A DNA stretch of 64,000 nt from a virus. Below are positions 18,309 through 47,544 of the stretch, in pieces. The notes beneath the pieces are model-generated. The model made no database searches. It was not told where the DNA came from and saw nothing but the letters and a program-made list of their open reading frames with translations. The stretch is taken from positions 1 through 64,000 of IMG/VR virus record IMGVR_UViG_3300049846_002561; one strand, given 5' to 3'. A program made the translations under genes and the position numbers. The stretch's first letter is position 1. Each line of letters begins with the position of its first letter.

Positions 18309-18311
18309 TGT

Positions 18312-18996: not shown

Positions 18997-19029
18997 AAAC
19001 TTATAAACAAATTATAAACACAAAACAAA

Positions 19030-26583: not shown

Positions 26584-26601
26584 TCTTAAACAAAAAGCAA
26601 T

Positions 26602-27876: not shown

Positions 27877-27883
27877 TCCAATC

Positions 27884-27916
27884 GGGGAGCAGTGACGCAA
27901 TCATTGCTCCCCTTTT
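27884..27916 (+). terminator. Intrinsic terminator after the capsid gene
   Basis: GGGGAGCAGTGA-CGCAA-TCATTGCTCCCC-TTTT. Confidence 0.85.
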
Positions 27917-27939
27917 ATTAAAACAAAAAAACACGAAAC

Positions 27940-28701: not shown

Positions 28702-28718
28702 AATTGCTATATTTGTGC

Positions 28719-29483
28719 ATGCCCATTTCGGTCTTAGCATTGCACAATCAAATTCTAGCAGAGCTTGACGCTGAAGGTTCTGATCGATATACGTTTGATC
28801 AGGATACCAAGTACGCTATTAATGCAGCTCAAGACATTGTTGTGGCGCTTTTCAACGAGGCGTTTGCTCAAAATAAGTTATCCCCGGAACAGTTAAGGGA
28901 TCTTACCAAAACAAAGGTATGGCAAGCGAATCAATACTCAAGGGTTGCATTTAAAGAGTCTGAGACAGGACATTCGTTGTGGTCGGTCATAGCGGTATAT
29001 CCGAAACCCCTGTGCAATAAGGGCGTCTCGTCTTCTCCTCAAGACGACAAATCAAAGTCGTTACTGAGGAGTGATATTTCGTTCATCAGTGCAGAGCACT
29101 CAGCAAAGAGGCTTTCTCTCGAAGAGTGGAGTGACAACAAAAAGAATGCCTTCATGCCGGGAAACACCGTTCTCTCCGGTGGACTTGCGGAATACGGGTA
29201 TCTTGATTTCTCGGACTACTCATCGTCTTCATATTCTGGAAACTCAGGTGAGCCGGAACTAGAAGTGCGACCAGCGATACCCGGACAACTAGTGGCAATA
29301 TCTTATTTAAAACACCCGAATAGGATATCAACAACAAGCGACTCTATAGAATTTCCATCTTCCATGTTTCAGCTTTTTGTTGACATGGCCCTTAATACTA
29401 TTGCCGTTAAGCAGGGCGATGGAACGAACTTGTGGTCTGTTACGTCAGTAAACATTCAAAAACTTGTTAACGCATTATTGTAA
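28719..29483 (+). CDS. Putative head-tail ring/adaptor protein 1
   Basis: AINAAQD...YLKHP..I...E pattern of podovirus ring proteins; ATG 28719 follows TATATTTG. Confidence 0.55.
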   Translation: MPISVLALHNQILAELDAEGSDRYTFDQDTKYAINAAQDIVVALFNEAFAQNKLSPEQLRDLTKTKVWQANQYSRVAFKESETGHSLWSVIAVYPKPLCNKGVSSSPQDDKSKSLLRSDISFISAEHSAKRLSLEEWSDNKKNAFMPGNTVLSGGLAEYGYLDFSDYSSSSYSGNSGEPELEVRPAIPGQLVAISYLKHPNRISTTSDSIEFPSSMFQLFVDMALNTIAVKQGDGTNLWSVTSVNIQKLVNALL

Positions 29484-30196
29484 TGGATTCACTAAGGGTA
29501 CATATTGACGAAACGCTGACCACGATCAAGCAGACATTTGATGACAGGACCGTTTCCCGCGCTCAGGTAGCCTATTGCTACATTGTCGCAGCGAATGACT
29601 TGCTATCAAAGCATATCCTTAAAAGGAGATCTGGAGCGTACCTCACGGTATTTGATGATGTCCCCGTAATATCAGCTGAAGCGAGTGAAGTTAAAAACGT
29701 TGTAAAGGACAGGAAATACATCGAGCTTCCGGCAACGATATTTGATTACGATAAGGATGGAGGCATAGAGCTCGTGGCATATACCTCTGACGGAGGTCCA
29801 GGCCAGCCGCCAAGATTTACTAGGGTTCCTTTTACAAGGACTTCCGTTAGCGAGGCTTCGTGGCTTTACCTGCACCCTCAAACGACACCATCCCCAAAAA
29901 CACCATACTATTATCGCGTCGGCAATCTAGTATATTTTTTAGGGGTAGAAAAGGTGCCTCTTAGCGCAGTAGAGATTGGGTTATATGTATCTGTTGATCC
30001 ATTGACGAAGATCGATATAGACGCTCCATTTGACTTCCCTCAAGAGCTCATGCAAACACTCAAGAGGTTAGTGATAGATCTCATCAGGTATAATTGGTTC
30101 TTCCCTAAAGAGAGCGGAAAGAACGAGGGAACAGACGACTCCGGAAAAGCAGCAGTGCCAAAAGTTATTTCAGTAAACGATAGAGAAACTCAATGA
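29483..30196 (+). CDS. Putative tail ring protein 2
   Basis: YIELP, YYYRVGNLVY, DP...D..FDFP pattern; position. Confidence 0.55.
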   Translation: MDSLRVHIDETLTTIKQTFDDRTVSRAQVAYCYIVAANDLLSKHILKRRSGAYLTVFDDVPVISAEASEVKNVVKDRKYIELPATIFDYDKDGGIELVAYTSDGGPGQPPRFTRVPFTRTSVSEASWLYLHPQTTPSPKTPYYYRVGNLVYFLGVEKVPLSAVEIGLYVSVDPLTKIDIDAPFDFPQELMQTLKRLVIDLIRYNWFFPKESGKNEGTDDSGKAAVPKVISVNDRETQ

Positions 30197-30993
30197 ACAC
30201 AGGTTCGTACATAAAGCCGGAGATCATCATATCCAAAGTTGCCATAATGGTTGGAGATACTGAATTTAATTCATTGCCGCGACCGTTCTACAATTCACTC
30301 GTTCAGCAGGCATTTGAAAAATTGGCCTTGGCAACATTCTTTGATGAAAAGAGGGCTGACATAGACCTCAACGGATCACTAGTTCATGACTTGCCGAAAG
30401 ATTGCTTCAATGTGATCAACGTATACATATACAGCGGAACGTCTTGCGATATTACGAAGAGTCATAAAGTGTGGTGGAAGAGAAATTATTACACCAGGGG
30501 CAATGGGTACATTGCAAATCACAAGGGTAACAACGCTGGAGATCCATTCTTTGATAACAGCAATTCATTTCATAGATACGGTCAAGCGTTAGAGGCTAGG
30601 GGCGTTGGAATAGCGCATCAAAACCTTTTGTACTATAATTTCCAGAACGGAAACATAATGCTTAGCTCGTCTTGCCTTTCATCTGGAAACAAACTTCACA
30701 TACACTACCATGGCACCGGATGCGCCGTAGACGAAGCTCCGATCATTCCCATCTTTTTAAGGGAGGCCATGGAGGATTACGTGATAACCCAGGCTTTACT
30801 TGCGCGTATCGCCAATGATAACGGGGATGTAAGAAAGTGGCAAGCCCTTTACCAAATACACGACGCCAAGCTAAGCCACCCTTTTACCGGATCGTGGGTA
30901 CGTGCAGAGGAAGCTGTTAAATCAATGAATAGCTCTCAACGAAGTGAACTCAAAGATTACCTAAGCAAGGCTGCTTGGGCAAATGATCTTTAA
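30193..30993 (+). CDS. Putative tail ring protein 3
   Basis: DLPKD, IHYHG...PIIP...EAMEDY pattern; position. Confidence 0.55.
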   Translation: MNTGSYIKPEIIISKVAIMVGDTEFNSLPRPFYNSLVQQAFEKLALATFFDEKRADIDLNGSLVHDLPKDCFNVINVYIYSGTSCDITKSHKVWWKRNYYTRGNGYIANHKGNNAGDPFFDNSNSFHRYGQALEARGVGIAHQNLLYYNFQNGNIMLSSSCLSSGNKLHIHYHGTGCAVDEAPIIPIFLREAMEDYVITQALLARIANDNGDVRKWQALYQIHDAKLSHPFTGSWVRAEEAVKSMNSSQRSELKDYLSKAAWANDL

Positions 30994-30995
30994 TT

Positions 30996-33900
30996 ATGGC
31001 TGAAACTCAACCTATACATATAAGCACCCTTAATGTGGGTATCGATCAGGACACTAATCCTGAATTGACGGGATCTCAGACTAACGGAAAATACCTTGAC
31101 GCAAACAACATGCGCCCGGTATCAACAATAGGGTCTTCTGAGTCGCAGCAGAAGTTTCAGGGAGAGGAGATTCTTTACCCAAACAACAAGGGAGTAACTG
31201 GATACAAGTGTATCGGAACGGCAAAACTGAACGACTATATTATAGAGATATTTGCTAAAAATGGCGATCCTGGCATCATTTGCGTGAACGGAACCATTGT
31301 CCTTCAGTCTTCCTTATTTGACGCTAGGGAGGATAAGCCGTTTCAGATAAGCGTTAATGAATCGGAGATAAATCAGGAGATACTGATCACCGATTATTAC
31401 CAGGTACCTTACATTTTCAATGTAAAGGACATGGTGGATTCGCTGATTTCTGATCCAAATAAATACTTTTCAGCATTTGATCCGCTATTGTATCAGATCA
31501 ATTTACAGTCACCGCTTGATCGTCTAGAGTTCATTGAACTAGTAAACGTTGGCGGGGGCGGAGGCCTCCCTGTAGGGCAGTACGAGTATCAGATGAGGTA
31601 TGGGAACGAGGAAGGTGACAGAACGGGATGGTCCGTAGGAACTCCATTAATTCCGGTAATGCAGAACTTGTCTAACGACAGCAGATGCTATCCTTGGACA
31701 AAAACATACGGAGGGCCTCCAAACCCATCAAGCGTAACGTCGCTTGCTCCAAGGTTAAAGTTTAGGGTTACCAACATCTACAATTACGAGTTCATTGAAA
31801 TAAGAAGGATAGAGTACAACAAAGGTGCTGGAATTGATTTTGTTCCACTTGGAAAGATTGTCGCAAGAATACCGATAGAGAAACAGGAAATTTCAGTAAA
31901 AGACTACATCGATCCTTCAGATGCTAATTTGAACATTGACATTTCTCGTGCCGAAGCGTCAATTCAGTTGGCTGAGGTAAACAGAGCCAAGTCTATACAG
32001 TACTTTGACAGAAGGGCTGTTCTTTTCAACGTGGAGCTTGCCTCAAAAGAGTCTAGCCTTGAATTTGAGGAGGTGAACGGAAGAAAGGGCTTCCCGGTAA
32101 TAGATAACCTTGGATGGGAAGGACACAAAGATCCATGGAACCACGTCAACAGACGGGCTTTAATGGGCGGAGAGAAGTACGGCTGGGGCGTAAATCTATT
32201 TGATGGCGTTGGCACTTCTGGATTTGTAACGAAAATCCCTACACTCGAAAACTATGAGTATCCTAATCGAAGGGATCCGGTTCCTGCTGAGACTGAAAAC
32301 TATTCCTATCAAGGAACTGTAAGGGCAGCCAATAGCAGTATAAACACCGTTTCTAGTACCCACGAAGTTTTTGACCTAGCTGACGCGGCTGAAAAAACAG
32401 ACATCTGCAGTTTTAAAAATATACTCAAGCCAGGAAAGACAGCCGGACTTACTGGAACCAGATCTACAACGAAGGTAAAAGAAGATTGTAATGAGGATAA
32501 TGGAGAGATAGAGAATCATGGGGCCAACGTTAGTGGTGGATCCCTTGTCTCTGCAGCATATCATCCGTTCCATCCAACAAAGCAGAATGACACTGACGTT
32601 ACCGGTCACGAGTACATGGTAAACACAAAAGTTTACACTCAAGCGAACGGCACTACTTGTTCTGTAATTGAAGACAACACTTTCAGTTATAGCCCGGCTG
32701 GGTTTGCTCCAAGATACTTTGCCCATGGCATGATGATCGCTGGAGTGTCAAACTTCCCTAAATGGGCAAAGGCCTTTTCTGTCGTAAGAACAAAAGCGGC
32801 GGGAAGAGTGGTTTGCCAAGGTCTTGGATTTTATTCATTGACAAAGGCCAAGTATAAGGTAGTTGGTAACCAGGAGCTTGCTGGGAAAGAGCAGGATAAA
32901 TTTTGGTTTTACTCTCCAGACATTGAGCACGGTATAGTTCCAAGCGACACCCTCAATGACATCATTGATAATCCACAAAACTACAGGCTTCAGTTTGTTT
33001 CTCCGCTTGGATTCTTTTCTGAGGTATATTCGTTTGAAGACAGCACCGTTGCCTGTAACAGGGACCGTATTGTTGATATGATATCCTATGTAAGGATGAT
33101 CAGAGAGGAAAATGGAAGACCCATAAATCCAGGGGAGGATGCGGCAATGGGCATAAGTGACGGAGGGCACAAATACGTTACATACGATAAGTACAGAAAC
33201 ACTAATCAAAACCCAAATGTGTTTGGCAGTGATCCTAATGTTGGGAATAAGCTTTTTACCATAGACTCTGTAAAAAGGAAGTCAGAGGGAAGGGGCAATT
33301 TCCTTGAGATAAAATCTCAGCAGGGAGTGTATGGGAAAGCGAGTGTGGGAGGCGTTTCCGGAAGACACTTTGCTGATCAGGGGTTAAAGGACTTCACCGA
33401 GCCGATGTATATCATCAACATTATCCGTGAAGGAGCGAATGTTGGAACGTCAGACGTGGAGGGCTATAAGCCAACAAATCACTATCAAAAGCTTGAATCG
33501 ATAATAGGTCGATCGAACGGAGTGCTCGGACAGGATTTTGAGCTTGTAGATGAGAGGTGGGAAGATTGTATTCCTGCTCCCGCCAGCACAATGTACGGGG
33601 CGTCCACTGAAAGATATATTTACATTAAGAAGTTGGACGGTACTGTAGAGAAGTATGTCAACGTAACGTACAAGACACCAGCTCAAATTGTTGCAATTAA
33701 AAATGCTATATCCATAAACGGATCGTATACCGGCGGAGTTACCGGTATATTTACGCACTATAACATAGGATCAAAGTACAGGCGCTTTGGCGTTTCATTC
33801 AATGATCCAGACTACATTCCCCCAGTAGATTCACTTATCCTCGTGAGGTATGATAATACTGCCCCTATAAGGGTTTATGGTGGAGATACCTATGTTGGAG

Positions 33901-35477
33901 AAACCATTTTCGCTCCAATAGACTCTCAGGCAAACGCAAAAAGCGACAAGGCAGAAACTCAGTTTCCATTTGGTATTGGATTCCCTTACTTCAAGTGGAA
34001 AACCAATCCTCGTTACTACACAATAAGAGACGCTTCCGCAAATGTAAACCTGGTGCAGGACGAGCTGCAGCTACAGCTCGGGTACATCAGGCAGATGTGC
34101 GCGATGTTTACCGTTGAGTCAAGGATCGCATGTCACCTCGCTCACAATCTTGAGTACCCTAACCAGTTCTTCCCGGCAATACACTATGTCATAAGGCCTA
34201 ATCGATGGGATAACGAAAGCGGATCTGTCAATTACTCTGCCAATAAGGTGTATGATGACTACGCAGACGACTACGGCGATGAGATGACTCAATGGAAGTG
34301 GGGGGGATTCAGGTTCCTGCAACAGATAAATCCAGATTACTCGTGTGAGTTGCCTATACGATACTTCTCTAAACCCGAGTCAGGATTTGTGGAGCAGACG
34401 GAGTTTAAAACAGGCATCATGTGGTCACTGCCAAGGGCCATAAACGTTCAAAACTCTCCTGGGCTAAGAACGTTCCCTGTAAACAACTTCTTCTCCATAG
34501 ACGATAATTGTGGGGAGATAAAGTACGGTTATAATGATACGACTAGCAAAGGTGAAAACCTTTACGCGATCACTAATTCAGGTATCTGTCTACTGATCAC
34601 AAAAAAATCGATTCTATCCGACTTTAACAGTGGAGAGGTGGGATACATGGCGGCGGATGGATTTATACTTGCTCAGTATTGGTTGAATAAGCAAGTGGGA
34701 ATGAATGACGAGATGTGGAGAAGCGCCGTGTCTGCATACGTCCCTTTCCCGGGTCAGGATGGAGCGGAGCAAAGCATGAAAGCGCTCTTTTTCGCCAACA
34801 ACAGATCTGTTTATCGTTTTGCTGGAAACGAAGTGGTTGATATCGGTAAAGATGGATACTACAGAAAAGTGTATCACAACGGATTAAAGAATATCGCCAC
34901 AGGCTTTACCTCTCACGTAACGGCTGCGTATAATCAGATATTTAATGAGTACATGCTTCGTATCCATAGCTCCGAAGACAATACGTGCCTGGTATTTAGT
35001 CAAAAGAAAGGAAAGTGGATCGGCACAACAGACTTTAAATTTGAGCGCTTTACCTCAAAGGGAAATCTACTATACGGGACAAGAGATCTTGAAACGTATG
35101 AGCTCAATAAGGGATATGTCATGAATGGTGAGCCGGTAAGGGGTCGTATACTTGGCGTTTCCTCTCCGGAGCAAGTGCACGAAAAGGAGTGGATATACAT
35201 AAGTGTAAATTCTATACAGAAACCAACTCAGATCGAGTTTTACAAGGTGCTGGGGGGCGCCCCGCAATGCGTTCTAAGTCAGTCAAATCAAGGGTCCCTG
35301 TACCTCAAAAAGTACAGCGGATGGAGGCAGTTCATCCCTAGGATCTTTGCTTCCGTTTCAGCGAATAGACCTAGACTTCAGGGAAGGATGGTTATATGGC
35401 ACGTTGAGCACTATGAAGAAACAGACTTTATTGTTGTTGATGTTTCTGTTCAGTATAAGATTCTCAAATTAAAATAA
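30996..35477 (+). CDS. Tail nozzle/muzzle (stabilisation) protein
   Basis: 1493-aa beta-rich protein; N-terminal GIDQD...YLDANNMR and C-terminal RLQGR typical of P22 gp10/crAss muzzle-like proteins. Confidence 0.7.
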   Translation: MAETQPIHISTLNVGIDQDTNPELTGSQTNGKYLDANNMRPVSTIGSSESQQKFQGEEILYPNNKGVTGYKCIGTAKLNDYIIEIFAKNGDPGIICVNGTIVLQSSLFDAREDKPFQISVNESEINQEILITDYYQVPYIFNVKDMVDSLISDPNKYFSAFDPLLYQINLQSPLDRLEFIELVNVGGGGGLPVGQYEYQMRYGNEEGDRTGWSVGTPLIPVMQNLSNDSRCYPWTKTYGGPPNPSSVTSLAPRLKFRVTNIYNYEFIEIRRIEYNKGAGIDFVPLGKIVARIPIEKQEISVKDYIDPSDANLNIDISRAEASIQLAEVNRAKSIQYFDRRAVLFNVELASKESSLEFEEVNGRKGFPVIDNLGWEGHKDPWNHVNRRALMGGEKYGWGVNLFDGVGTSGFVTKIPTLENYEYPNRRDPVPAETENYSYQGTVRAANSSINTVSSTHEVFDLADAAEKTDICSFKNILKPGKTAGLTGTRSTTKVKEDCNEDNGEIENHGANVSGGSLVSAAYHPFHPTKQNDTDVTGHEYMVNTKVYTQANGTTCSVIEDNTFSYSPAGFAPRYFAHGMMIAGVSNFPKWAKAFSVVRTKAAGRVVCQGLGFYSLTKAKYKVVGNQELAGKEQDKFWFYSPDIEHGIVPSDTLNDIIDNPQNYRLQFVSPLGFFSEVYSFEDSTVACNRDRIVDMISYVRMIREENGRPINPGEDAAMGISDGGHKYVTYDKYRNTNQNPNVFGSDPNVGNKLFTIDSVKRKSEGRGNFLEIKSQQGVYGKASVGGVSGRHFADQGLKDFTEPMYIINIIREGANVGTSDVEGYKPTNHYQKLESIIGRSNGVLGQDFELVDERWEDCIPAPASTMYGASTERYIYIKKLDGTVEKYVNVTYKTPAQIVAIKNAISINGSYTGGVTGIFTHYNIGSKYRRFGVSFNDPDYIPPVDSLILVRYDNTAPIRVYGGDTYVGETIFAPIDSQANAKSDKAETQFPFGIGFPYFKWKTNPRYYTIRDASANVNLVQDELQLQLGYIRQMCAMFTVESRIACHLAHNLEYPNQFFPAIHYVIRPNRWDNESGSVNYSANKVYDDYADDYGDEMTQWKWGGFRFLQQINPDYSCELPIRYFSKPESGFVEQTEFKTGIMWSLPRAINVQNSPGLRTFPVNNFFSIDDNCGEIKYGYNDTTSKGENLYAITNSGICLLITKKSILSDFNSGEVGYMAADGFILAQYWLNKQVGMNDEMWRSAVSAYVPFPGQDGAEQSMKALFFANNRSVYRFAGNEVVDIGKDGYYRKVYHNGLKNIATGFTSHVTAAYNQIFNEYMLRIHSSEDNTCLVFSQKKGKWIGTTDFKFERFTSKGNLLYGTRDLETYELNKGYVMNGEPVRGRILGVSSPEQVHEKEWIYISVNSIQKPTQIEFYKVLGGAPQCVLSQSNQGSLYLKKYSGWRQFIPRIFASVSANRPRLQGRMVIWHVEHYEETDFIVVDVSVQYKILKLK

Positions 35478-35495
35478 TTTTATTACTTTTACGTC

Positions 35496-36221
35496 ATGGA
35501 TCCAACACAAATAGCAACCACTGCGATAAGTCTTGGTTCAGGCCTTATTCAGAACATTAAGGCAAATAAATTGAAGAAGCAGGCGGACGCCGCGATGCCT
35601 GGAAACGTTGATCCCAGCCAAGCAGCATTTTTATCGGAGCTTAATCAAAAAAGAAAAGCTATGGATACCGGCGCTGAGTTTGCTGGGGCAATGCAGAACA
35701 TTGATGCCACAAACGCGGGTACAAGGCAGGGCATTCTTTCCGCTTCAGGTGGAAACACCGGATCTGCAATACAAGGCCTTCTTGCTGCCCAAGCAGGAGC
35801 AGATGCAGCTAAAGGAAACGTTATCGCCCAAGGTCAGTCAAAGCAGTTGATGCTTAATCAAATGTATAATGACCTAAACAATCAAATTTCTGCTAGATCT
35901 TTGCAGTTGGATTTGTTGAGGTCTCAACAAAAGAGAGCTGAGTGGGCACAAAAGAAGCAAGCCGCAAACCAAAACATGATGGCCGGAATGACCGGTATAG
36001 CAGCTATTGGAGCCGGTCTTGCCGGAAAGGCAATGCCAGGCGGTATTGGCGGTGGTGGCGATATGTCGGCAATAGCTCCACAGCCGACAATTCCTTCGGA
36101 TGCGGATATGAACATGGAGGCTCCTGGGGCCGGTGCTACCGGAGAGCCTGTAGCTGGAGCGTTAGAGGGCGGAATGCCAGACGCTTCTATTCTGGAAGGG
36201 TTAGGAGGTCTAGGCGGATAA
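35496..36221 (+). CDS. Putative ejection/pilot protein
   Basis: A/G/Q/M-rich with hydrophobic ends, directly after the nozzle gene. Confidence 0.6.
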   Translation: MDPTQIATTAISLGSGLIQNIKANKLKKQADAAMPGNVDPSQAAFLSELNQKRKAMDTGAEFAGAMQNIDATNAGTRQGILSASGGNTGSAIQGLLAAQAGADAAKGNVIAQGQSKQLMLNQMYNDLNNQISARSLQLDLLRSQQKRAEWAQKKQAANQNMMAGMTGIAAIGAGLAGKAMPGGIGGGGDMSAIAPQPTIPSDADMNMEAPGAGATGEPVAGALEGGMPDASILEGLGGLGG

Positions 36222-36222
36222 A

Positions 36223-37878
36223 ATGGGACTCAACGACGCAAGCATACTGGATTCCATTTCCCCAAAGGGAGAAGATTTTAATGTAAACGATATTTCGTCT
36301 TACACTCCCTCTGACATGTCTCCTCAGCAGAAGGAGTCGTTCAACAACATGTACTCGCCATCTACGGGACCACTACCCGTTTCGACCTATTACCCGGGCA
36401 TTAATCACAACATTGGAGTTGGTACTTATTCTGGAAGCCAGATCGGAAGCGCTACCCTATTTGCCCCTGGCGGAGACCTGGTTCCGTTAGGCCTTCTTGA
36501 CGCAAGGGATCTTGCGATGAAGCAGGCCGCAATGAAAAAGGCGAAGGACCTTGAAGATTTTAATAAGCAATATCAGTCCCCCACAACAAAGCACACGGCT
36601 GTACAGAAAAGTCTTACTGACTCTTATTTTGATGGGCTTAATAAATGGATAGGCAATGCTACCCAAAAAGCTGGTGGTGATCAAGCGACTGCTATAAACA
36701 TGCTGAAGAACGACGTTGGATTTCAAAGATGGAATAAGGGCATGCAGGATCGTGCAAAGATGCAAGATCAAGGTGTTGAGATTGCAGCGCAGCTTCAGTC
36801 TGCTGAGAAGGATGAGAACTTTGTTTTAAGTCCAGAGACCAGGAATGCCATGAAGTCCTTCCTTTCCGGGGAATATGCTGGAGCAGATCCATTCAGTAAA
36901 GAGGGTACTCAGTTTACAAAGAACTTCATTTCCATGAAGGCCAATTACGACCTTGACAAGGCAGTGAATGACTCCTTGACAAAGGCCATACCTAATTTAG
37001 AGCAACTTCCACCTACATTTCAAGGAAGAGGTAAAAATGAATTAGCTACATTCCTTGAAAAAGAATACTTCACTCCAGAGCAAAAGAAATCTATTGCCCA
37101 TGACATATTCATGGAGAAGTTTCAGGGAACTGGGATTACGGAAGATCAGGTTTTAAAAAACCTTGAAGCTAAAACTGGCGAGAAAATCAAAAGACACGTT
37201 CAGCATTATGACAAGTGGTTTAAGCCGGACACTTCCGGAAATGAAACCGATTACACTAATGCAGCCCCTCAGAGTGAGACTTCATTCAATGTATCGGTTC
37301 CTTCATCAACGCCCGGACAAAAATCAAAGACACTTGAAATATACGGCGCCAATTCATTCAAGACATCTGCCGATGACGAGAAAAAGGAAATAAGCATCAC
37401 CGCCGGACCAAACACTGTTGACCTTCAGGGTAAAAAGATTCACGAAAAGGCCGGTCAGCTAAAGGGAACAGTGTCTCAGATATTTACAGGTTATTACGAT
37501 AAGGCAAGAAAAAGATGGCTCAGCCCTCAAGAAACGAAAGACTTTAAGGAGGGCAAGATGGGATCTGCAAATGACATTATCGCTAAGCCTGCAGTTATGT
37601 TCAATATAAAGAAAGAAGAGGGAGATAAAGGTCCGGGTAACGCACTTATTCTTGACGTTAACGACGTTAAAGGTAAGTACCCAAAGAAGGGTAACCAGAA
37701 AAAGAGCTTTGACGATCTTATTTCTGATTTAGAGGTTGCAACTGAAACTGAAAATAAAGAAGGACGACTTGGTACCGGATGGAAGCAGGGCTTAAAAACA
37801 GGACCTAAAACAGGTGCAAAAGGTGAATCTACGAAGACAAACAACGCTGATAATTTAAGAAAAAAGTATAATTACTGA
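36223..37878 (+). CDS. Putative internal virion (ejection) protein
   Basis: 551 aa between the pilot and giant proteins. Confidence 0.55.
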   Translation: MGLNDASILDSISPKGEDFNVNDISSYTPSDMSPQQKESFNNMYSPSTGPLPVSTYYPGINHNIGVGTYSGSQIGSATLFAPGGDLVPLGLLDARDLAMKQAAMKKAKDLEDFNKQYQSPTTKHTAVQKSLTDSYFDGLNKWIGNATQKAGGDQATAINMLKNDVGFQRWNKGMQDRAKMQDQGVEIAAQLQSAEKDENFVLSPETRNAMKSFLSGEYAGADPFSKEGTQFTKNFISMKANYDLDKAVNDSLTKAIPNLEQLPPTFQGRGKNELATFLEKEYFTPEQKKSIAHDIFMEKFQGTGITEDQVLKNLEAKTGEKIKRHVQHYDKWFKPDTSGNETDYTNAAPQSETSFNVSVPSSTPGQKSKTLEIYGANSFKTSADDEKKEISITAGPNTVDLQGKKIHEKAGQLKGTVSQIFTGYYDKARKRWLSPQETKDFKEGKMGSANDIIAKPAVMFNIKKEEGDKGPGNALILDVNDVKGKYPKKGNQKKSFDDLISDLEVATETENKEGRLGTGWKQGLKTGPKTGAKGESTKTNNADNLRKKYNY

Positions 37879-40800
37879 TGCCTGGAGACGAGAAAATACT
37901 GTCTGACGCTGATCGCGCAAGACTCGATGGAATTGTCAATAAGATGATTGAGAACAACGAAAAGGATGAAGACATCCAATTTGTTGTCAATGATTTTAAA
38001 GATAAGTATGGCTTAAAAAAAAAAGAGTCTACCACTTCTCCTTTGGCATCTACTTCAACGGATCTATCTACAAGTGCACCGTCGGTATCGGAAGGTGGCA
38101 CATCAGGATTGGCAAGTACGCCATCGGTCTCTACAGGGCCTACAATGACGATGAAGGACGGGAAACCGTTCCTGAATCTTAATCAACAGGTAACGCCCGT
38201 AGATCAGACACTGAAGGCCGCAACCACTCAGGCCGACATCACGCCAAAGAGCAACGTATACGCTCCACTTGAAAAAGTTCAGATAAAGAACGAGGATCAG
38301 GGTACCGGCATTGGAACCGCCGTGGCTAGAGGGACTGCAAGGATGGTGAACTCAGTACTGAAGTCTCCAAAATTCGTGTATGATATTTCCGTAGCTCAGC
38401 AAAACCCAATAGTAAAGGCAACCCTGGATAAGCTGAACATGGGATCTGCCGAACAGCTTGCGGGGAAGTTAGGGATATGGGACCCTACTAAAGAGATAGA
38501 CGCCGCCATACAGGCCAACGAGCAGGAAATGGCTCAAAAGTATGATCAGTCGATAAATGATTATTTCTTTGGCGAAAAGCCAGATGTCAAAAAGGGATTA
38601 TCTCTGTTAGCGAACAGGGTAGCGGAGGCTTTACCTACAACGATGGCTCTCATGATGACCGGTGCTATGTCTTCCGCTGAAGGTATTGCTGGCTCAACGA
38701 TCGCCTTTGGGGCGGAAAAGAAATCTCAACTTGACGCTAACAACCCGGACATGTCCGAGGATGATAAAACGGCAAACGCCCTAATCTCGGGGGCACTTGA
38801 AACCGTAACAGAATACTTGCCAACAAATGCGTTGGTTGGTCTCGCCGAAAGAGCGCTTATGAAAACGGGAGTAGAATCTGCTAAGAAGGTAGCGAAAGAA
38901 GGATTTAAGGCCGTCGTTGGAAAAGCGTTAAAAGAATACGGAGGAGCGTTCATGTCTGATGCTGTTGGTGAAATGGCAAATCAGTTTGGAGAAAACGTTA
39001 CTGACAAGCTTACCGGTGCAGATCCAAACAAAAATCCGTGGGACGGAGTTATGGATGCTATGTGGATTTCTTTAGGATCTACCGGAGCTATGACGGCGCC
39101 TATTGCAGCTATTGACGTTGTTAAGACAGCTTCTGGACTGAAAAAAGCAACTGAGCTGGAAAAAAACAAAGAGTCTTTGACTCAGGACCTACAGTCACCG
39201 GAGGTATCCCCAGAAACGAAGTCTATAATATCTGAGAAGATAAAGAACATAAACGACGAAGAGGCTACGCTCGCCCAACAGGAAAAGGAAAGATATGCTG
39301 CCCTCCCACAGGAAGGCAAAACTGAAGTTGACAGGTTGCTTGGTGAAATAAAGAAGGTTACCGACGTGCTTTCTGATCCCGCCGTTTCTGATGATACGAG
39401 AAAGGCCCTTCAAAAGGAAGTTGACGACTTCAATAAGCAGATAGAAGACGTCTACGACCTTTCAGAGCAGGGCATTGAAAAGGAAGACTTCATGGCTGAG
39501 TTCCAAAAGTCCCTCGCCGAGGAGCAACCAGGAACAAAAACAGAACCGGCTACTATACAGAAAGATCAGGCCGTCACAACAGATGAGCAAGCTCAGCAAT
39601 CGGCTGAACAAAAGAAGCCTGAAGCTAAAGAAGTAGAACTTCCAGGTGTAGATGTTGGTGGGGTAAAGGGCCTCCCTAGAAAAATGGTTTTTGACGAATC
39701 TGATCAGAAGTGGAAGCAGAGCGTTGGTGGAGAGCTTACAAACGTATCCGATCAAGCTCAGCAGGAAGCTCAAGGCATTTACGAAGAGGCTTTAAACAAA
39801 AAAAGGGAAGAGTTACAAAGATCAGACGTTATTTCTTCGTCAATAAACGTGGCGCCATTATTCAGTCAGAAGATAAAGAATATGGATGAAGCTAATCAAC
39901 TTCACGCCACCAGGTTTTACAAAAAATACAAGCAGGACGTTAGGGATGTAGCAAAAGAGTTTAATGTAACAATAGACGCGGAAGAGGATGGAATAGGTGG
40001 ATTTGCAGATTTAAGTGAGGCGACTACCGTTTTCAAAGTTACCGGTGACTTTAACGATATCGTAAAATTGGCAGCAGCCGTGGGGGGCTTGACACCTGAA
40101 GTTCAGGAATCTACAATAGCTTCAATGTACGTTCAGGATGGTGACAAAAACCACAATGCTGATCAGACCGAAGTGGGCATAGACAACCCAGAAGCGGCAA
40201 TAAAGGCTGCCAGAGATGCTGGATTCGAATCAACTGGTTATACGCTAGTTGGAAATAAAATTAACTTTTTAGAGATTTTTGACTATCCGGATGCGAATTT
40301 TAAAGAAAAAATCATTACCTTTATTAACAAGTATAATGAATATGGAGGCAGAATTGAATCAACAGAAAAACGAGCAGTTAGATCAGAATACATCGATCAT
40401 GTCAGAAGGGGAGAAATTTTATCAGAAATTGAAAAGTCTTCCTTACAACAACGACAGGGTGGGTCAAGGCTTCGTGACATATCACGGAAAGCCAAACAAC
40501 GAACCGACAGTTATCGGAAGTGGAAAGAAATAGATTCCACAAAAGAGGCTAAAAGATATCGTGAGCTTCGTAAAAAGCAGATAGACCTATCTGCTGAAGG
40601 TAAAAAACTATCCAAGGAAGAGAAAGCTGAAATTTCCAAGCTAGAGAAGTTTTTAGCTGAACCATTAGCTTCAATCATAGCAAGCGATAAAGAGCTATAC
40701 GAAGAAGCTAAAAAAGACATTGACGCAATAACAAACCAAGTGTCATCTATTGTAGATGATGGATTTTCTTTAAAGCCAGAGATCAAGAGGCCGTCAAGGG

Positions 40801-43800
40801 CTGCCGAGAAAGTAATTCGGTGGTATGATATTCAGCCAAACTTGTTGAATGACGGAGCTAGAGCAACTATTATCGTAAACAACGATAGTGACGCAGACTT
40901 TGTTTTCAATAGGATGACTGAAATGTACAGCGTGCCCGGAATGAGAGCTCCGGTTAACGAGAAAACGTTTTTAGGGTTTAGAAAAAGACTCTTAGAAATA
41001 AGAGCTGAAAATGGAAAGATAGTTGAAGTGCAGGTCACAACTCCGGCAGTTTATTTAGCTAAAGAGGGATTAAGTCACTTCCTTCCTGAAAACAGAAAGG
41101 CAGCAGAAGATGCATTAAAAGAGGTGCGAAAAAAGGTCGGATTCGATATTCCGGAAGGAGGAGGTCACTTCTTTTATGAGATATCAAGAGATGAAAATGT
41201 TCAGGACGAATTAAGAGACAAGGCAAACGATTTAAGTAAAAAATACTACGATCTATTCTTTAGTGAAACCTTCTCCATGAGCAAGGAGGATTTCACTAAA
41301 GAGCTTTCCGACTTCGTGAAGGCTGTAGATAGCGCGGATAAATCAGAGTGGGACCCAAGTAATAAGGGTAATGTACCTACTCCAATAAGAGAATTTATTA
41401 ACCAAAAACCAAAAACCAATGCCACTAAAAAAGGGAACATCACAGAAGGTGATCAGCAGCAACATCAAAAAAGAGATGAAAGCGGGGAAACCGCAAAAAC
41501 AAGCGATCGCGATCGCAATGTCGAAAGCGGGAAAAAGCAAGAAGAAGAAGTAACTAAAGAGGAGCCTGTTTCTAAAAAGAAAGAGGCTCCTTCTAAAGAG
41601 CTCGTAGACGAGGAAGAGGAGGCGGATAAGGAGCTGAAAGAGGATCAGGAAACCATCGATAAGATGGACAAGGACCTCGCCGCAGCAAAGGCTATAAACA
41701 AGAATGATAAGGATGCTGTAAAAAAAGCTGAGGATAAATTCAAGGGAGCCATCTACAGGGCATTTATTGCAAAGGACCAAAAGAAAATAAAGAAGACCAC
41801 CTATACTGCGTTCAGGAATGCAATGCAGCAGATAATAGGGCCAAAGCTTAATGCTAACGCAGAAGAAAGCAAAGCAAGACTGGAGCAATTAAAGGAAGTA
41901 ATAAAGCAAAGACTTTTAGGGGAAGGTTATAAGAAGATACTTCTTTCCGCTCCCGGTTTTGGTCCCGCTCAGGTAGCCGCATTGATTGACTTTACTATTG
42001 AGGCAGCAAAGAAAGCGATTGACGCCGGTTACTCGATAAAAGACGCCGCAGAGAGGGCGATAGCATTCGCTAAGGGGCAGCCAATCTATGCCAAGCTAGT
42101 TGAGAAGAAGCATCTCGACGAAAAGGAATTTGAAAGTGCTGTTAGGGATACGTTCAACCCAAAAGAAGAAAAGAAAGAAGAAAAGAAAAAGGAGGAGCCA
42201 AAGGTAGAGAAGAAAGAGGAGACAAAGGAGCGCAAGACCTCGCAGCGTGTGATGGAGTCCAATTTCGTTGATCCCGGCATAAAGGATGCCCTTGCGGAAG
42301 AGGGATTCAAGTATGTTCCTCGCGGAATAAATATGGCGCAGAGTGATGCCAGGAAAATTGTAAAGCACTTCCTTGAAAACGATAAAATAGACGACCTCAT
42401 TGAGACTGTTACCACTAACTCTGAAATGAGCAGGGTGGAGAAGAACTCAATGGCCGCTACTATATTTGAGGCGCTGAATAAGGAGATTGGTAAGACTTCT
42501 GATGAGGACACAAAAAACGAACTCAGAAAGAAGGCTGTAAAAATGCATCAATTCCTTGCCAAGAACTTAACGGAGAGTGCTCAGGATCTCAGGCTGAACG
42601 GAACGATCAATAAGTCAATAGCTGAGGGTGACCCTGATGTTGCCATTACTTTGTTGAAGGAACAAGCCCAAAAGAATATCGAGAAAAATCTCGGAACAAA
42701 GGAGCAGGACAAGAAGATTAACGATACTGTAAATTCCCTTAACAACATTGAGGAGGAAGTTTCCAGGAGAGTGAAGGAAAACCTTACTGAAGAGGTTGAG
42801 AAGGAGATTGAGAAAAGAATACTTAAAGTTGTCCCAAAGGAAACTATAGATAAGCTGAACAAGTTTTTTGATGGGTTGCTGATAAAGCCAGGCGGGAAGT
42901 TATTTGCTGACGTTACCGGACTCGGGGGACTTACCGTATTGGTGTGGAATGGAGCCGTTTCAACAGTAAAGGGCGCAGTTTATCTTGGATTAACAGCGTA
43001 CAATGGAGTTGCCAATAGTCAAATGATCAATAACGCCGTTCAGGCTGGCGTTGACTACATAAAAGAAAATCATAAGGGTGAATTTGACGAAAAGAACTTC
43101 AGGGATAAGGTAACTGAAGAAATTACAAAAGGTCTTAAAGATAACGGAATAGAGATCCGTGAAAGGAAAGAACGTAAGAAGGATCTCGAAAAGATGGTTG
43201 ATGATGTTGTCAATGAAATGAAGGAGGGGAAGAAACCAAAACCGCAATCAGAGAAAAAGACCGAGAAGAATGCCGATGTAGAAAAGGTCAAAGCAGTAAT
43301 GGAGCAAGCCATAGGAAAGCTTGAGATGTCTGATTATGCGAAAAAGAAGTTGACCGTAGACGTAATTGATCACCTTGAGAATAACGACGGTAAAATAAGT
43401 AAAAAGAAGTTCAAGGAGCTTTACGCAGAGGCTCTAGGATATGATTTTGTCACTCCTGAAATAGAGGCAGACATTAAAGCTAATTTTGAGGAAATTAAAA
43501 AAGCGACTGACCTTCAGGATAAAATAAACGACAAGCTAGACGAGGCTGTGTCTGCCGAAAATTCATATAAGGCAAAGGGCCAAAAGATGCCATCCGAAGA
43601 AAGGTCTAAGTTCATAAAAGAAATCAACGCACTCAGAAAGGAGCATAATACACAAACGCTAAAAGCCCAGAAGGCCAACGATAAGATTTCTGGACACTTT
43701 AGGGAAGGTAAAAACTTCTACAGAATGCTTGGAGCCGTACTTCAAGGAAACCTACTCACTCCAATGTCGCAGGTATTCAATATAACCGGATACCTCTATA

Positions 43801-45644
43801 CGCTTCCTGTAAGGTTTGTTGGCGGCCTCGCTGGTACGGCATTGGACTTAGTTGAGTCTGGGTTAGCTAGGACGAAACTCTTTGGTGATCGCCTTGATAA
43901 AAATCTTCAAACAAACATTTTTGCAGAGACTGCTTATGGACTGAAGTACGGAGTTGCTCCAGGAGTTCAAGAGGCTTTATTCAAACTGAAGACCGGACAG
44001 TTAAGCGAAGACACCGCACTACGTGATGTGAGTCAAAAGTTTAACGCTTTTGATTCGTTCTATGACTTCTTTTCAGGTAAACTAAAGGGCAAGGATTTTG
44101 AAACAAAAGTTACCTCTTTGTTTGAGGGAACATTTGGATTACCTGCCGAGATCATGTTCCGCCTTCTAGGTCCTGCAGACATCATGGTGAGAAAAGGCAA
44201 GGAGTATGGCCGTCTTGCCGAGCTAGCAAAGGCACAAGGCCTTGAGGGATTTGAGTTCATGCGTGAAATACTAAATCCGGCAACTGAGCTTAAAGAACAG
44301 GCGCAACAGGAATCACTTAGAGCTTCCTATCAAAATGAGAACGTTCCTACCAAGACTATTAAGTTCATGGAAAAAGGGATGGAGGACTGGATAAATAAGA
44401 TCGCCGGAGAAAAGCTTGGCTATCATCTCAATGGAATGCTTAGCCTGGCAAAGACAGCCGTTATTCCTTTTACGAAAACACCTATTAACGTGGTGAGCGA
44501 ATTGCTTCAGTACTCGTTCCCTCCTATATCATTTGCTAAAGCGCTTGTAGCTGCAAAGCACGGAGATAGAAGGGCATTTAACGTATCCATGGGAAAGGCA
44601 ATGGTTGGAGCTGGCCTGTCTTACATAGCATATCAGCTGATCATGAACGGGCTCATGACCGGGGCTCCAGATGATGAGGATAAGGACAAGGAAAAGAGAG
44701 CAATGTATGAGGGCATAGGGTATAAGAAAATGAACTACTCCGCCCTTCAGAGATTCATTGCCGGAGATCCTAATTGGAATAAGATAAAGGATAATGACAA
44801 CTGGGTTAACTACGAGAAGATGGGCCTTCCTGGCATGGTAATGGCTACGTGGGCTGCATACTACAAAGATCGCACCCCTGAAGAAATGCGTGACCAGAAC
44901 CTTGCCGGTGATATGTTTGCCGGAATACAAGCCACCCTAAAGGCTTCTTTAGAGCAATCATTCCTTAAAGGAACATCAGACGCGTTGACCTCTTTGATGA
45001 ACCCATCCGGCAAGAAGGCTCAATACTTCTACGTGAACTACCTGGGGTCCATGGCTAGTATCGTGTATCCTAATACTCTAGCTTCAATAAGTAGGTCGTC
45101 GGATCCATTAGTGAGAGACAAAAGAACAGACGAGGGCTTTACCAAAATGCTGGTAAATGACTTCAAGGTAAAGATGTTTATGGGCGATCAGCTTCCTAGC
45201 CGCGTGACTCTTTGGGGTGAAGACGCCAAAAAGGTTCCGGAAGGAACTAACCCATACGTCTACTACCTGCTTGATCCTATAAAGTCAAATTCAGTGAGCA
45301 CGAAAACATTTGGATATAAGATATTTGACTTTTGGAGGAACGTTTCGGAAAGCAATAAAGACCTGAAAAACAAGATATTACCTTCCATTCCTCAGAAGTC
45401 TTTGAGGATGAATGGACAGGACATCCCTCTTACTGATTCAGAATATAACACGTTCCAGAAGTTAGTAGGAAAGAGTCGTGCCCAGGGGGCGGAGGCATAC
45501 GTGTTATATGGTGACTTTGACACCGATGATCCGCAGACAAAGGCGGAAACCCTTCAGCGTATTTATTCGTCATCGTATTCATTGGCCAAGGATGAAATGA
45601 TAAACAACACTCCAAGGTTACAAGAAATTATGATGGCAGATTAG
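37878..45644 (+). CDS. Giant internal virion/ejection protein with an embedded RelA/SpoT-like nucleotidyltransferase domain
   Basis: 2588 aa, mostly helical; about 40720-41260 encodes [11 protein letters not shown]...D..R...GFR...EVQVTT...GH.FYE.SR. Confidence 0.7.
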
Positions 45645-45677
45645 AATGATTATAAATAATTCATATATTTGCACACA

Positions 45678-46238
45678 ATGGCTCTTCAGCTCAAAATAAA
45701 CATCGAGGAGAAGGAAAACTCCTTTGTTGTAGTTGATCTAACTGGTAAGTATAGATACGATAATTTGACGGGTTGGGGGCCAGCTACCGCCGAGGTAAAA
45801 AATATCTCGAAGGCTACTCTCTCAATATGGAAACCGGGAGCAACGCAGCCGAAAGACGTTGACGTTACTGGTGACTTCCCAAATAAAGAATGTATCGATA
45901 TTGAGATCCTTCCATATATGGCGGGCCTCACCGGAAGTGTACTTGTAAGTGGAAAATATAAAGTTAAGCTCACTGTTGAGGGGACTGACTGCAAAGGAGC
46001 CACTTACTCAAAGTCAGCGACGGTAGAAAAGGTATTCGTGAACGATGTCACTTGCTGCCTTGACAAGCTTCAAAAAAGGGTAAATAGGGATGCTTACCAA
46101 GAGAAGTTACAGCAAAACATAATCATTTTAAGTAATTTGCTTGAATCTGCAAATTACGCTATTTGCAAAGGATTAACGGAACAGGCTTCAGAAATTGTTG
46201 AGTTGCTTAAATCTCAGTGTTCATGCGTGGATTGCTGA
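45678..46238 (+). CDS. Hypothetical Cys-rich structural protein
   Basis: ATG 45678 after TATATTTG (45664-45671); beta-rich, TCC and terminal CSCVDC. Confidence 0.6.
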   Translation: MALQLKINIEEKENSFVVVDLTGKYRYDNLTGWGPATAEVKNISKATLSIWKPGATQPKDVDVTGDFPNKECIDIEILPYMAGLTGSVLVSGKYKVKLTVEGTDCKGATYSKSATVEKVFVNDVTCCLDKLQKRVNRDAYQEKLQQNIIILSNLLESANYAICKGLTEQASEIVELLKSQCSCVDC

Positions 46239-46252: not shown

Positions 46253-46789
46253 ATGGCTTGTTCAAAGTGTAAATCAAATAAATGCTGCTGCCCAAAGGTG
46301 ATCACAAAGATCGGCCCTCGTGGCCCGAAAGGTCCTCCCGGCCCGAAAGGTCGTGATGGCCAGGATGGTCTCAGGGGACCGCAAGGCCCGGCATTCGTTC
46401 CCGACGTTAACTTCATCGAAAGGGAAACGTTTCAATTCATAAACGTAGGATCTCCAACGGCCAATGACTCTGACCTTATAGTGTCTGGTCTTGCCGCCGG
46501 TACCTATATGGTTTTTGTTGAGGTTGACACCATTTTCAACAGGGATACTAACGTTGCAGAAAACGGATCGATCTCTATTTTCTTGAACGGAACCCTCAAT
46601 GAGAGAAACATAAACTTTGACAACCCAGGTGTCCAGAAGAGAGGCTTTAAGCTTGTCCTTAATGCCGTTGTGGTGCTTGCCGCTCCCGGAAACATATCGG
46701 TGAACTACTCAATGACGTCGTTCCCGTTGAACCCAACCACTTCTTTCACATTCCTTAAAGGATCAATAACCACATTAAAAGTATCGTAA
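46253..46789 (+). CDS. Collagen-like fibre protein
   Basis: CSKC...CCC N-terminus, GPRGPKGPPGPKGRDGQDGLRGPQGP Gly-X-Y run, beta-sandwich-like C-terminus. Confidence 0.75.
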   Translation: MACSKCKSNKCCCPKVITKIGPRGPKGPPGPKGRDGQDGLRGPQGPAFVPDVNFIERETFQFINVGSPTANDSDLIVSGLAAGTYMVFVEVDTIFNRDTNVAENGSISIFLNGTLNERNINFDNPGVQKRGFKLVLNAVVVLAAPGNISVNYSMTSFPLNPTTSFTFLKGSITTLKVS

Positions 46790-47544
46790 TGAGCTGTAAG
46801 TCAGAATCAGAAAAACAGATGGAGGCCAAGATAGCTGAGCTATCTGATGCTGTAGAAGCCATAAACAAGAGCGCAAAGTTTTTGCTTGAGGGTCACCCTA
46901 TCTTACTCATTCAGCACGTTGACGACATCGCTCAGTTCGATTTCAATTCCGGAGAGGGTACCGGAGCGTGGTACGGGTGGGCAATGTGCACTGGAAATCA
47001 GTACACCAATCCATCAACAAAGAAAAAGATATCAACGCCAAACTTCGTTGATCGGTTCATCGTTATGGCCACTGGCAATTACGAGGTGGGTGACGTTGGC
47101 GGCGCAGATGAGGTGACACTCACTGAGGCTCAGATGCCTAGTCACAATCACACGCTTACCGATCCCGGACACGGACACTCTCTTAGTGACCCGGGTCACG
47201 ATCATGCGGTGACGGACCCAGGCCATGGTCACACGTCTGATCCGCATGCCCATAACTTTGAGGATACAAAAACTGAAGCTAACTCAGGTAGCCCATTTGC
47301 TATTCCTACATCCGGAACCGGGGCAGGCGTTCTCCTTGGAGACACTAATACCACAAAGCAGACAGACCCAGCCACCGACACTCTTCAAGATAACGTGACA
47401 GGCCTTACCGTAAATAACGCGTTTACCGGAATTGGAGTACAAGAGGCTGAAGCTGGAATCACCATTGAGTCTGCCGGTAGCGGAGAGGCTCATGAAAATA
47501 GACCTCCTTATTACGCCGCCATTTATGTAATGAAACTGTGGTAG
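46789..47544 (+). CDS. Tail fibre with collar domain and HxH metal-binding tip
   Basis: GWAMC.G...TPN...RF, VTLTEAQMPSHNH, DPGHxH repeats, HENRPPYYA. Confidence 0.8.
   Translation: MSCKSESEKQMEAKIAELSDAVEAINKSAKFLLEGHPILLIQHVDDIAQFDFNSGEGTGAWYGWAMCTGNQYTNPSTKKKISTPNFVDRFIVMATGNYEVGDVGGADEVTLTEAQMPSHNHTLTDPGHGHSLSDPGHDHAVTDPGHGHTSDPHAHNFEDTKTEANSGSPFAIPTSGTGAGVLLGDTNTTKQTDPATDTLQDNVTGLTVNNAFTGIGVQEAEAGITIESAGSGEAHENRPPYYAAIYVMKLW

Follow-up and report, generated by a model that had tools for sequence, protein, structure and literature searches.

A Tas1-like RelA/SpoT-homolog domain in an accessory cassette of a giant polyvalent-type phage protein

Introduction

The best-characterized counterpart of the domain described here is Tas1/Apk1 of Pseudomonas aeruginosa, a type VI effector that synthesizes (p)ppApp (PDB 6OX6) and carries its toxin domain at the C-terminus behind PAAR. 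A phage-encoded branch of the same family, Apk2, is fused to MuF in temperate phages of Bacteroides caccae, Streptococcus pneumoniae and Mannheimia haemolytica and makes only (p)ppApp (PMC12226406, PMC10083569). Capsid carriage of such Tas1-type enzymes and their firing into the host is stated to be an open question for MuF/Apk2 (PMC10083569). Iyer et al. described in 2017 RelA/SpoT-type nucleotidyltransferase domains in Spirochaetes and Epsilonproteobacteria (pro)phages and in MuF fusions, for which they predicted (p)ppGpp-like alarmones (PMC5512222). Polyvalent RelA/SpoT domains (2017) and MuF-fused Tas1-type (p)ppApp synthetases (2017-2025) are already in print. Here we describe a Tas1-like RelA/SpoT-homolog (RSH) synthetase domain within a 2588-residue protein of an uncultured phage, encoded in a stretch of 64,000 nucleotides (hereafter the window) that covers positions 1 to 64,000 of the IMG/VR virus record IMGVR_UViG_3300049846_002561 (73,491 bp, CheckV completeness 100%).

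A Tas1-like RSH domain in a giant phage protein

The giant open reading frame (ORF) runs uninterrupted over 37878..45644 on the plus strand and encodes a multidomain protein of polyvalent type (2588 aa, termed P0001). The RSH synthetase domain, of the toxSYNTH class, occupies residues ~928-1130 (40659..41267, +), as delimited by sequence and model alignment to Tas1. A preliminary description, made from the sequence alone, had read five short strings as RelA/SpoT synthetase motifs. We located them at residues 969-981, 991-998, 1032-1035, 1049-1055 and 1096-1104 (window 40782-41189), and the synthetase identity of the segment is borne out by sequence, profile and structure searches. The toxic alarmone synthetases that it had invoked are indeed the nearest relatives of the domain, and the occurrence of RelA/SpoT domains within phage polyvalent proteins that it mentioned agrees with the published record (PMC5512222).

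A single-sequence search against solved structures returned one specific match, Tas1 (6ox6_A, E 1.7e-4), aligning query residues 43-225 with chain residues 258-431. A scan of 1.84 billion representatives yielded 192 relatives at E<=1e-3, falling in two tiers: about 50 close relatives, nearly all within proteins of 1,000-4,300 aa, and a distant tier (E 1e-11 to 1e-4) of short proteins or ones in which the domain is C-terminal, in the style of polymorphic toxins. The profile of 31 sequences, comprising the window segment and short members of both tiers, matched Tas1 at 1.1e-77, followed by RelP/YwaC (1.7e-5), SaSAS (5.4e-4) and RelQ (1.8e-3). A second profile, built from the window cassette described below and 19 full-length cassette-bearing proteins, gave Tas1 as the only specific match (E 3.3e-7), the remaining rows being coiled-coil proteins.

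The AlphaFold2 model of residues 901-1164, with a predicted local distance difference test score (pLDDT) of 93 and a predicted template modeling score (pTM) of 0.87, displays a nucleotidyltransferase-type SYNTH fold, in which a central mixed β-sheet is framed by helices; the absence of such a fold, which the preliminary description had named as grounds for abandoning the assignment, was not seen. Structural similarity search using Foldseek placed Tas1 on top (E 3.3e-7, template modeling score 0.73), followed by CapRel, Rel, SAS1, RelP and SaEAS, and VIA-align likewise ranked Tas1 ahead of other RSH enzymes. In the model of the whole cassette, residues 289-491 align with Tas1 chain residues 243-436, and the domain has the same extent as the Tas1 toxin domain, including its two long N-terminal helices. 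The preliminary description had also suggested a comparison with PF04607. No direct match was obtained there, and the link to this family is transitive, since 11 of the 31 aligned relatives match it while P0001 does not. As sequence, profile and structure searches all lead to Tas1 and other RSH enzymes, the fold and family assignment is secure, and Tas1/Apk1 is clearly the nearest characterized relative.

Existing annotation hardly touches the domain. Pfam, PHROGs, NCBIfam and PADLOC returned no family for it or for the N-terminal domain of the cassette; P0001 as a whole has no Pfam family at E<=0.1 (the sole row is ADH_Fe_C, E 0.32) and no PHROG match, and a tblastn search of the domain against 50,697 GenBank phage records found no match. 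The annotation of 10 relatives offers nothing beyond "hypothetical protein". Look-alikes in BFVD, all from uncultured phages, bear the names "RelA/SpoT", [quoted passage not shown], "ART-PolyVal-like" and "Tas1".

The ATP side of the active site

Conservation was counted over 207 collected domain instances, namely 83 of the "cassette family" (P0001-P0052 plus loci, some of these loci and proteins being duplicates of each other) and 124 others, among which a few cassette-like fragments (P0053-P0060) are included. Tas1 chain positions from HMMER are offset by 21 from Apk1 numbering, such that R309, K332, N349 and E361 correspond to R330, K353, N370 and E382.

On the ATP phosphate side, the Syn1-type basic helix consists of K970, S973, K978 and R981 (40785..40820, +). 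All but one of the 83 cassette-family domains keep K970, and all but one keep K978; among the 124 others, the counts are 114 for K970 and 115 for K978. The helix is probably comparable to that of FaRel2 with R64, K66, S70, K74 and R77 (PMC11782079). The Syn2 motif D992-G-A-R995 (40851..40862, +) provides the Mg2+-binding Asp and the adenine-stacking Arg, which are present in all 83 cassette-family domains and in 121 of the 124 others. R995 aligns with Tas1 chain R309, that is Apk1 R330. In Syn4, E1050-V-Q1052 (41025..41033, +), the catalytic Glu and Gln are found in 83/83 cassette-family domains; E1050 aligns with chain E361 (Apk1 E382) and Q1052 with the next Gln. A further motif, H1097-F-F-Y1100-E-I-S-R1104 (41166..41189, +), has its His, Tyr and Arg each in 83/83. 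Altogether, K970, K978, D992, R995, G1033, E1050, Q1052, K1062, H1097, Y1100 and R1104 are all present in P0001, each being kept in 82-83 of the 83 domains of the family. In Apk1, R330, E382 and the following Gln have been named as ATP-binding residues (PMC12691689). Judged from the aligned sequences, the catalytic residues on the ATP side are intact, and ATP is almost certainly the donor.

The acceptor side and a Tyr-to-Phe change

Adenosine and guanosine 3'-pyrophosphokinases are distinguished by the signatures R-Y-T versus A-V-R in Syn2, G-x-N versus S-x-H in Syn3, and Y-H versus I-R in Syn4 (PMC12226406). The Syn2 of the window domain reads R-A-T, which is of the adenosine-kinase type (R-x-T, as in Tas1) rather than the RSH-type A-V-R, and the Apk signatures of Syn3 and Syn4 are absent. 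The G-loop (Syn3), G1033-F1034-R-K1036-R-L1038 (40974..40991, +), has F-R-K-R-L against a family consensus of Y-P-K-R-L; K1036 and L1038 are each found in 83/83 cassette-family domains, and at position 1036 the Tas1-like tier mostly has Gly (97 of 124). Compared to the Y-S-G-V-N of Tas1, the family thus has Y/F-P/R-K-R-L, and the position of Apk1 N370 is a Leu in the MAFFT alignment, the loop being gapped in the pairwise alignment. The Asn of Tas1 Syn4 is missing as well: the second residue of this pair (V-T in the window) is Met in 51, Ile in 27, Thr in 4 and Val in 1 of the cassette-family domains.

As the Syn3 and Syn4 signatures do not fit, the domain is classed neither as Apk1 nor as Apk2; to judge from these motifs, the cassette family has a third signature, distinct from those of both Apk and RSH enzymes. 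Being unlike Tas1 at Syn3 and Syn4, the domain cannot simply be assigned the product or specificity of Tas1. Nor does the fold fix the product, because Apk1 homologs that make (p)ppGpp alone exist (PMC12691689).

The Tyr of the G-loop stacks on the acceptor, and the Syn2-type Asp binds Mg2+ (Kurata et al., preprint). Tyr occupies the position of F1034 in 78 of the 83 cassette-family and 119 of the 124 other domains, and Phe is found in P0001, P0002, P0003, P0040 and P0047 (5/83), so that the Tyr is absent in the window and the aromatic character retained. A FastTree phylogeny of 70 distinct cassette domains and 25 of the 93 distinct Tas1-like ones, calculated without identical duplicates and without rows exceeding 30 gaps, places the Phe forms at three separate positions (P0001-P0003, P0040 and P0047); its rooting is unreliable, the first outgroup being a cassette-like fragment, and the tree was used only for this separate placement. 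Substitution of this Tyr by Phe is described as "well-established" for catalytically impaired RSH enzymes, with FaRel2-Y128F, PhRel2-Y143F and FaRel-Y175F as examples (PMC11782079). The preliminary description had pointed to GFR in place of GYR as a hint of an altered acceptor. The site was chosen correctly, but the reading needs revision: since Y-to-F impairs RSH enzymes, F1034 speaks no less for attenuation than for a new acceptor, and the family-wide Syn3/Syn4 signature is the better indication that the acceptor site differs.

P0001 is collinear along its entire length with P0002 (2624 aa), at 68% overall identity. Conservation between the two is highest in the RSH part, at 88% identity, which indicates that the domain is under purifying selection.

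An accessory cassette with a ferredoxin-like partner domain

The RSH domain belongs to a conserved unit of ~530 aa (residues ~645-1170; 39810..41387, +), composed of an N-terminal domain (N-domain), a helical linker and the RSH domain. Among 58 relatives longer than 1000 aa, 33 align over the whole unit (P0001 residues ~641-658 to ~1127-1170), for another 14 the alignment begins no earlier than residues ~796-936, and the remaining 11 are Tas1-like C-terminal domains. The position of the cassette within the proteins that carry it varies from residue 58 to 2232. Moreover, P0159 and P0160 share with P0001 the N-terminal 520 aa and residues 1174-1447, and have ~70 aa or none at the site of residues ~527-1173. 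On these alignments, the variable position and the absence from P0159 and P0160 identify the cassette as a discrete accessory insertion. P0159 and P0160, the latter on a contig of 73,907 bp and thus similar in length to the present genome, provide a natural with/without pair for the cassette.

In the AlphaFold2 model of residues 640-1170 (pLDDT 89, pTM 0.84), an α/β N-domain is followed by long helices and then by the RSH domain. The N-domain (residues ~654-855; 39837..40442, +) adopts a tandem ferredoxin-like α/β fold in this model, and its invariant residues include G707-G-F709, E714 and Q743-E744-S745. These may echo the few conserved residues of S-adenosylmethionine (SAM) lyase, G56, Y58, E69, Q104, E105 and S106 (PMC7877911), a resemblance that we regard as a lead rather than a finding. 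Against a SAM lyase, Foldseek retrieved only dimeric α+β-barrel or ferredoxin-like proteins (E ~1e-2); hhalign of the N-domain profile against T3 SAMase gave a probability of 0.1. ESM Atlas had no usable N-domain match. Complex prediction of the N-domain with the RSH domain gave scores of 0.28, 0.37 and 0.01 against a mark of 0.32, in runs without controls.

A pattern scan of IMG/VR found the cassette at 30 viral loci. The frame is complete from stop to stop, at 2478-3931 aa, in 26 of them; three run off the locus and one (L025) is broken at 303 aa. When the window proteins were compared with these loci, only the cassette, plus a partial N-terminal scaffold in 6 loci, was matched, except for a 975-aa glycosyltransferase-like protein weakly matched in L001 and L030. 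Because the other window proteins do not match, the carriers are evidently divergent phages, whose hosts are probably Bacteroidota. Among 185,579 species genomes, a Chitinophagales metagenome-assembled genome gave the single match. There, a 411-aa ORF (P0025; 10184-11419 of L034, on a contig of 240,684 bp) covers query residues 148-528 outside any giant gene, and may represent a remnant or a free-standing toxin. Upstream of the cassette, inspection of the sequences of two other carriers, P0004 and P0006, revealed a common stretch whose motif is metallopeptidase-like, of the HExxH type; neither protein has a Pfam family.

The carrier protein and its genomic setting

The N-terminal scaffold of P0001 (residues 1-~600; 37878..39677, +) is shared with other giant phage proteins, and jackhmmer ties it to P0047, P0044 and the giant proteins of L006, L020, L012 and L003. 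Database relatives of the scaffold include P0165, with RadC, LPD1, ART-PolyVal, LPD38 and other domains, and P0167; InPase-type Pfam domains also occur among the relatives. The cassette-bearing P0010 carries ART-PolyVal and DUF7178. As the scaffold relatives and P0010 carry polyvalent Pfam domains, P0001 is assigned to the polyvalent class (PMC5512222), with which it shares the very large multidomain build and the shuffling of domains between relatives. No Pfam LPD or polyvalent-specific domain was detected within P0001 itself. In ESM Atlas, the nearest cluster to its C-terminal 689 aa (score 0.96) has LPD38 in 74% of members, which serves as a lead only.

In the window, the giant gene follows, on the same strand, the genes for the terminase large subunit (20105-22441, +; PHROG, E 1e-10) and the portal (22985-25258, +; PHROG, E 4.3e-25), and precedes two tail-fiber-like genes (46253..47544, +; PHROG, E 1.5e-7 and 6.1e-38). 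At eight inspected loci, the giant gene is preceded by ORFs of 428-595 aa and 207-339 aa (551 and 241 aa in the window), and at five of the eight it is followed by a same-strand ORF of 164-194 aa (189 aa in the window). Six of ten scanned locus neighbors match PHROGs, two being phrog_14478, two terminase, one an unknown family and one DarB-like. Those of phrog_14478, annotated as "virion structural protein", are two large upstream ORFs (6.7e-96 and 4.6e-41), and the terminase lies after the giant gene in L021 and L030. Matches to the phrog_14478-type protein occur in 87 phage records, which come from phages of Flavobacterium, Cellulophaga, Tenacibaculum and Maribacter, and Cellulophaga phage phi19:3 has a similar gene order that ends in a 1871-aa protein named virion structural by its depositor on an unstated basis. 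From the gene position and the polyvalent relatives, we infer that P0001 is packaged and ejected. Transmembrane segments of an ejection protein were considered as well and dropped, as a Kyte-Doolittle profile found none.

This phage has a structural module very distant from described families. A tblastn comparison of the window proteins with Cellulophaga phage phi19:3 and MW202828 gave only weak portal similarity, and the portal and a 1493-aa neighbor had no match in the 50,697 GenBank phage records. In L004, a 1242-aa ORF two genes past the giant gene (16076-19804, +) has a DarB-like antirestriction PHROG match (1.9e-11) and may be a second large candidate anti-defense protein beside the polyvalent one.

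The 73,491-bp record contains no HD_4, HD or tyrosine-integrase (PF00589) match, whereas the controls were found in 10, 14 and 14 of 14 genomes, respectively. The phage is apparently non-temperate. No hydrolase-type immunity gene was found in the record, binders of the Tis1/IapK type not having been searched for.

Comparison with described systems

Tas1 is the nearest solved relative in both sequence and fold, with equivalent ATP-side R330, E382 and Gln. Its toxin domain is C-terminal, whereas the domain described here is internal to a 2588-aa phage protein. No Tis1 partner was identified, proteins of the Tis1 type not having been searched for. Apk2 resembles the present protein in being a phage-encoded enzyme of the Tas1 family fused to a carrier that associates with the capsid; Apk2 has been suggested to be injected along with the DNA (PMC10083569, PMC12226406), and packaging is likely here. 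The two differ in that P0001 has no Pfam MuF, carries the domain away from the C-terminus and has it fused to an N-terminal ferredoxin-like partner. Furthermore, no iapK or aph1 genes follow the domain, the genome has no HD domain or PF00589 match, and the Syn3 and Syn4 signatures are unlike those of Apk2.

Similar to the proteins of Iyer et al. (PMC5512222), P0001 is a giant phage protein, of a kind thought to be delivered with DNA, in which a RelA/SpoT-type nucleotidyltransferase is strung together with other effector domains. By contrast, its domain is Tas1-like and sits in a bipartite mobile cassette, and the nearest cultured structural relatives infect Flavobacteriia, with one copy in the Chitinophagales genome. 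The tRNA-pyrophosphorylating toxic small alarmone synthetases CapRel, FaRel2 and PhRel2 share the toxSYNTH fold, with the G-loop aromatic residue and the Mg2+ Asp equivalently placed. Their similarity to the window domain is much weaker than that of Tas1, no pseudo-Zn-finger antitoxin domain was seen here, and they act in host defense, compared to a presumed phage offense here.

Neither the bipartite cassette nor its acceptor signature was found in the literature, nor was its presence in phages that are apparently non-temperate and have no HD hydrolase; the 2,959 Apk1 homologs in the supplement of PMC12691689 may include such proteins, and the word "polyvalent" has 0 occurrences in the text of that article. 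The cassette family would add a second, apparently non-temperate setting for Tas1-type enzymes, with a fused partner domain, a different acceptor signature and no detectable hydrolase-type immunity gene.

Proposed mechanism and alternative explanations

Our preferred reading is that the domain, part of a polyvalent protein, is a pyrophosphokinase from a new subfamily of toxSYNTH enzymes that is sister to Apk1 and Apk2. We give roughly even chances to the fuller proposal that this distinct subfamily, carried in a mobile cassette, is packaged and acts in the host on an adenine-containing acceptor. On this view, giant polyvalent proteins of uncultured phages have received the cassette by insertion into their scaffold, and the protein would most likely be packaged in the capsid and exit together with the DNA. 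Once in the cell, the domain would bind ATP as pyrophosphate donor and move the pyrophosphate to the 3'-OH of an adenine-containing acceptor, as a first guess AMP, ADP or ATP, which would yield (p)ppApp and drain ATP in the service of early host takeover or anti-defense. Given the Phe at the acceptor-stacking position and the basic acceptor loop R-K-R, the enzyme of this lineage is expected to be slowed or re-targeted, rather than an ATP sink of Tas1 speed. A slowed enzyme would suit a phage that needs its ATP and has no detectable hydrolase-type immunity gene. An adenine nucleotide is the most probable acceptor, with (p)ppApp as the product; the altered Syn3 and Syn4, the basic loop and the Phe may instead point to tRNA, another nucleotide or much-reduced activity.

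Several observations weigh against this proposal. An ATP sink of Tas1 speed at infection would starve the phage too. PF04607 misses the whole protein (E<=1), the segment of residues 901-1164 (E<=10) and the six-frame translated genome. Syn3 has K-R-L instead of the Apk signature G-x-N, and the V-T of Syn4 differs from both the V-N found in 91 of 124 domains of the Tas1-like tier and the Y-H of Apk2. Among Apk1 homologs, VpEAS and AaEAS make only (p)ppGpp and SaEAS makes both products (PMC12691689). F1034 sits where Y-to-F impairs FaRel2, PhRel2 and FaRel; the P0001-P0003 clade lies on a long branch in the FastTree phylogeny, and the window clade departs from the family consensus by G991N, E1025P, P1035R, T1043A, A1049V, M1054T, G1058V, D1063E and D1093E. 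As for packaging, none of the 10 window proteins between portal and tail fibers (25324-37878 and 45669-46238; one of 1493 aa) has a Pfam match, five of them likewise lacking a PHROG match, and none of 6 neighboring window proteins is linked by jackhmmer to ORFs of the related loci. In addition, the Kyte-Doolittle profile has no 19-residue stretch >=1.5, and no strongly hydrophobic segment was found.

We consider it unlikely that the protein is never ejected into the host and instead does its work within the producing cell or once lysis has occurred, for example as a polymorphic toxin against neighboring bacteria. Injection of MuF toxins is itself stated to be open (PMC10083569), a polymorphic-toxin role has been considered for them, and packaging here rests on gene position, beside neighbors that lack a Pfam match or jackhmmer link. 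However, the gene lies inside the head-to-tail gene block, its relatives belong to the polyvalent proteins and carry ART-PolyVal and LPD domains, and the absence of a PF00589 integrase from a 100%-complete record makes a prophage-borne role in competition unlikely. A producer-side toxin would also be expected to have an immunity gene, and no HD-type hydrolase was found, the Tis1/IapK type lying outside the search. Rather less probable is a pseudo-enzyme in this lineage, which would bind a nucleotide or partner with catalysis lost. Y1034F is the standard impairing substitution, and the roughly 10 departures from well-conserved family positions and the long branch fit the same picture; the Mg2+- and ATP-side catalytic residues are nevertheless all retained, the domain is the most conserved part in comparison with P0002, and Phe appears at three separate places in the tree and might still stack on a base.

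Two explanations concern the acceptor. A tRNA-modifying enzyme that shuts off host translation right after ejection would accord with the basic loop, and we rate it about as improbable as the pseudo-enzyme, given how much closer Tas1 is than the tRNA-pyrophosphorylating enzymes. A (p)ppGpp synthetase mimicking the stringent response, and thereby reprogramming host transcription and translation, was put forward in 2017 for polyvalent RelA/SpoT domains (PMC5512222), and some Apk1 homologs do yield (p)ppGpp alone (PMC12691689). It appears highly improbable here: Syn2 has R-A-T and not A-V-R, Syn3 is without the guanosine-recognizing S-x-H and Syn4 without I-R, and (p)ppGpp synthetases are only distant matches. 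Very unlikely, too, would be a two-enzyme anti-defense warhead delivered with the DNA, which combines a SAM-lyase-like N-domain with a pyrophosphokinase whose undescribed acceptor motif is Y/F-P/R-K-R-L. If true, it would remove SAM or SAM-derived signals and cap the 3'-OH of a target other than ATP or GTP, such as a linear defense signaling nucleotide or an RNA end, disarming SAM- and nucleotide-dependent immunity of the host before phage gene expression.

If the cassette pyrophosphokinase is active, it would show how a phage can exploit a toxin fold that consumes ATP and still keep its own infection alive, and could reveal a new acceptor for RSH pyrophosphokinases. Should the Phe form be inactive, it would represent a natural case of a toxin fold retired inside a polyvalent protein.

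Other features of the window

ARAGORN predicted a transfer-messenger RNA (tmRNA) with a 22-residue tag at 17816-18308 on the minus strand. Rfam at the gathering score reported nothing in the window; at relaxed settings, the full model tmRNA_permuted (RF04321) matched 17907-18277 (-) at 42.5 bits, below the cut-off of 47 (E 8.2e-7). The locus 17816-18308 (-) is probably a permuted tmRNA-like gene. The link that the preliminary description had drawn between the RSH domain, a tmRNA and leaderless mRNAs is unsupported, as nothing ties this gene to the domain.

Two large genes lie further upstream on the plus strand. An 885-aa protein (6861-9518, +) has two methyltransferase-like modules and a C-terminus resembling "minor coat protein", and the 975-aa protein mentioned above (12667-15594, +) has two glycosyltransferase-like modules (phrog_3317 and phrog_2644) in addition to a third module with a weak galactosyl-transferase match. 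Both may be DNA- or surface-modification enzymes.

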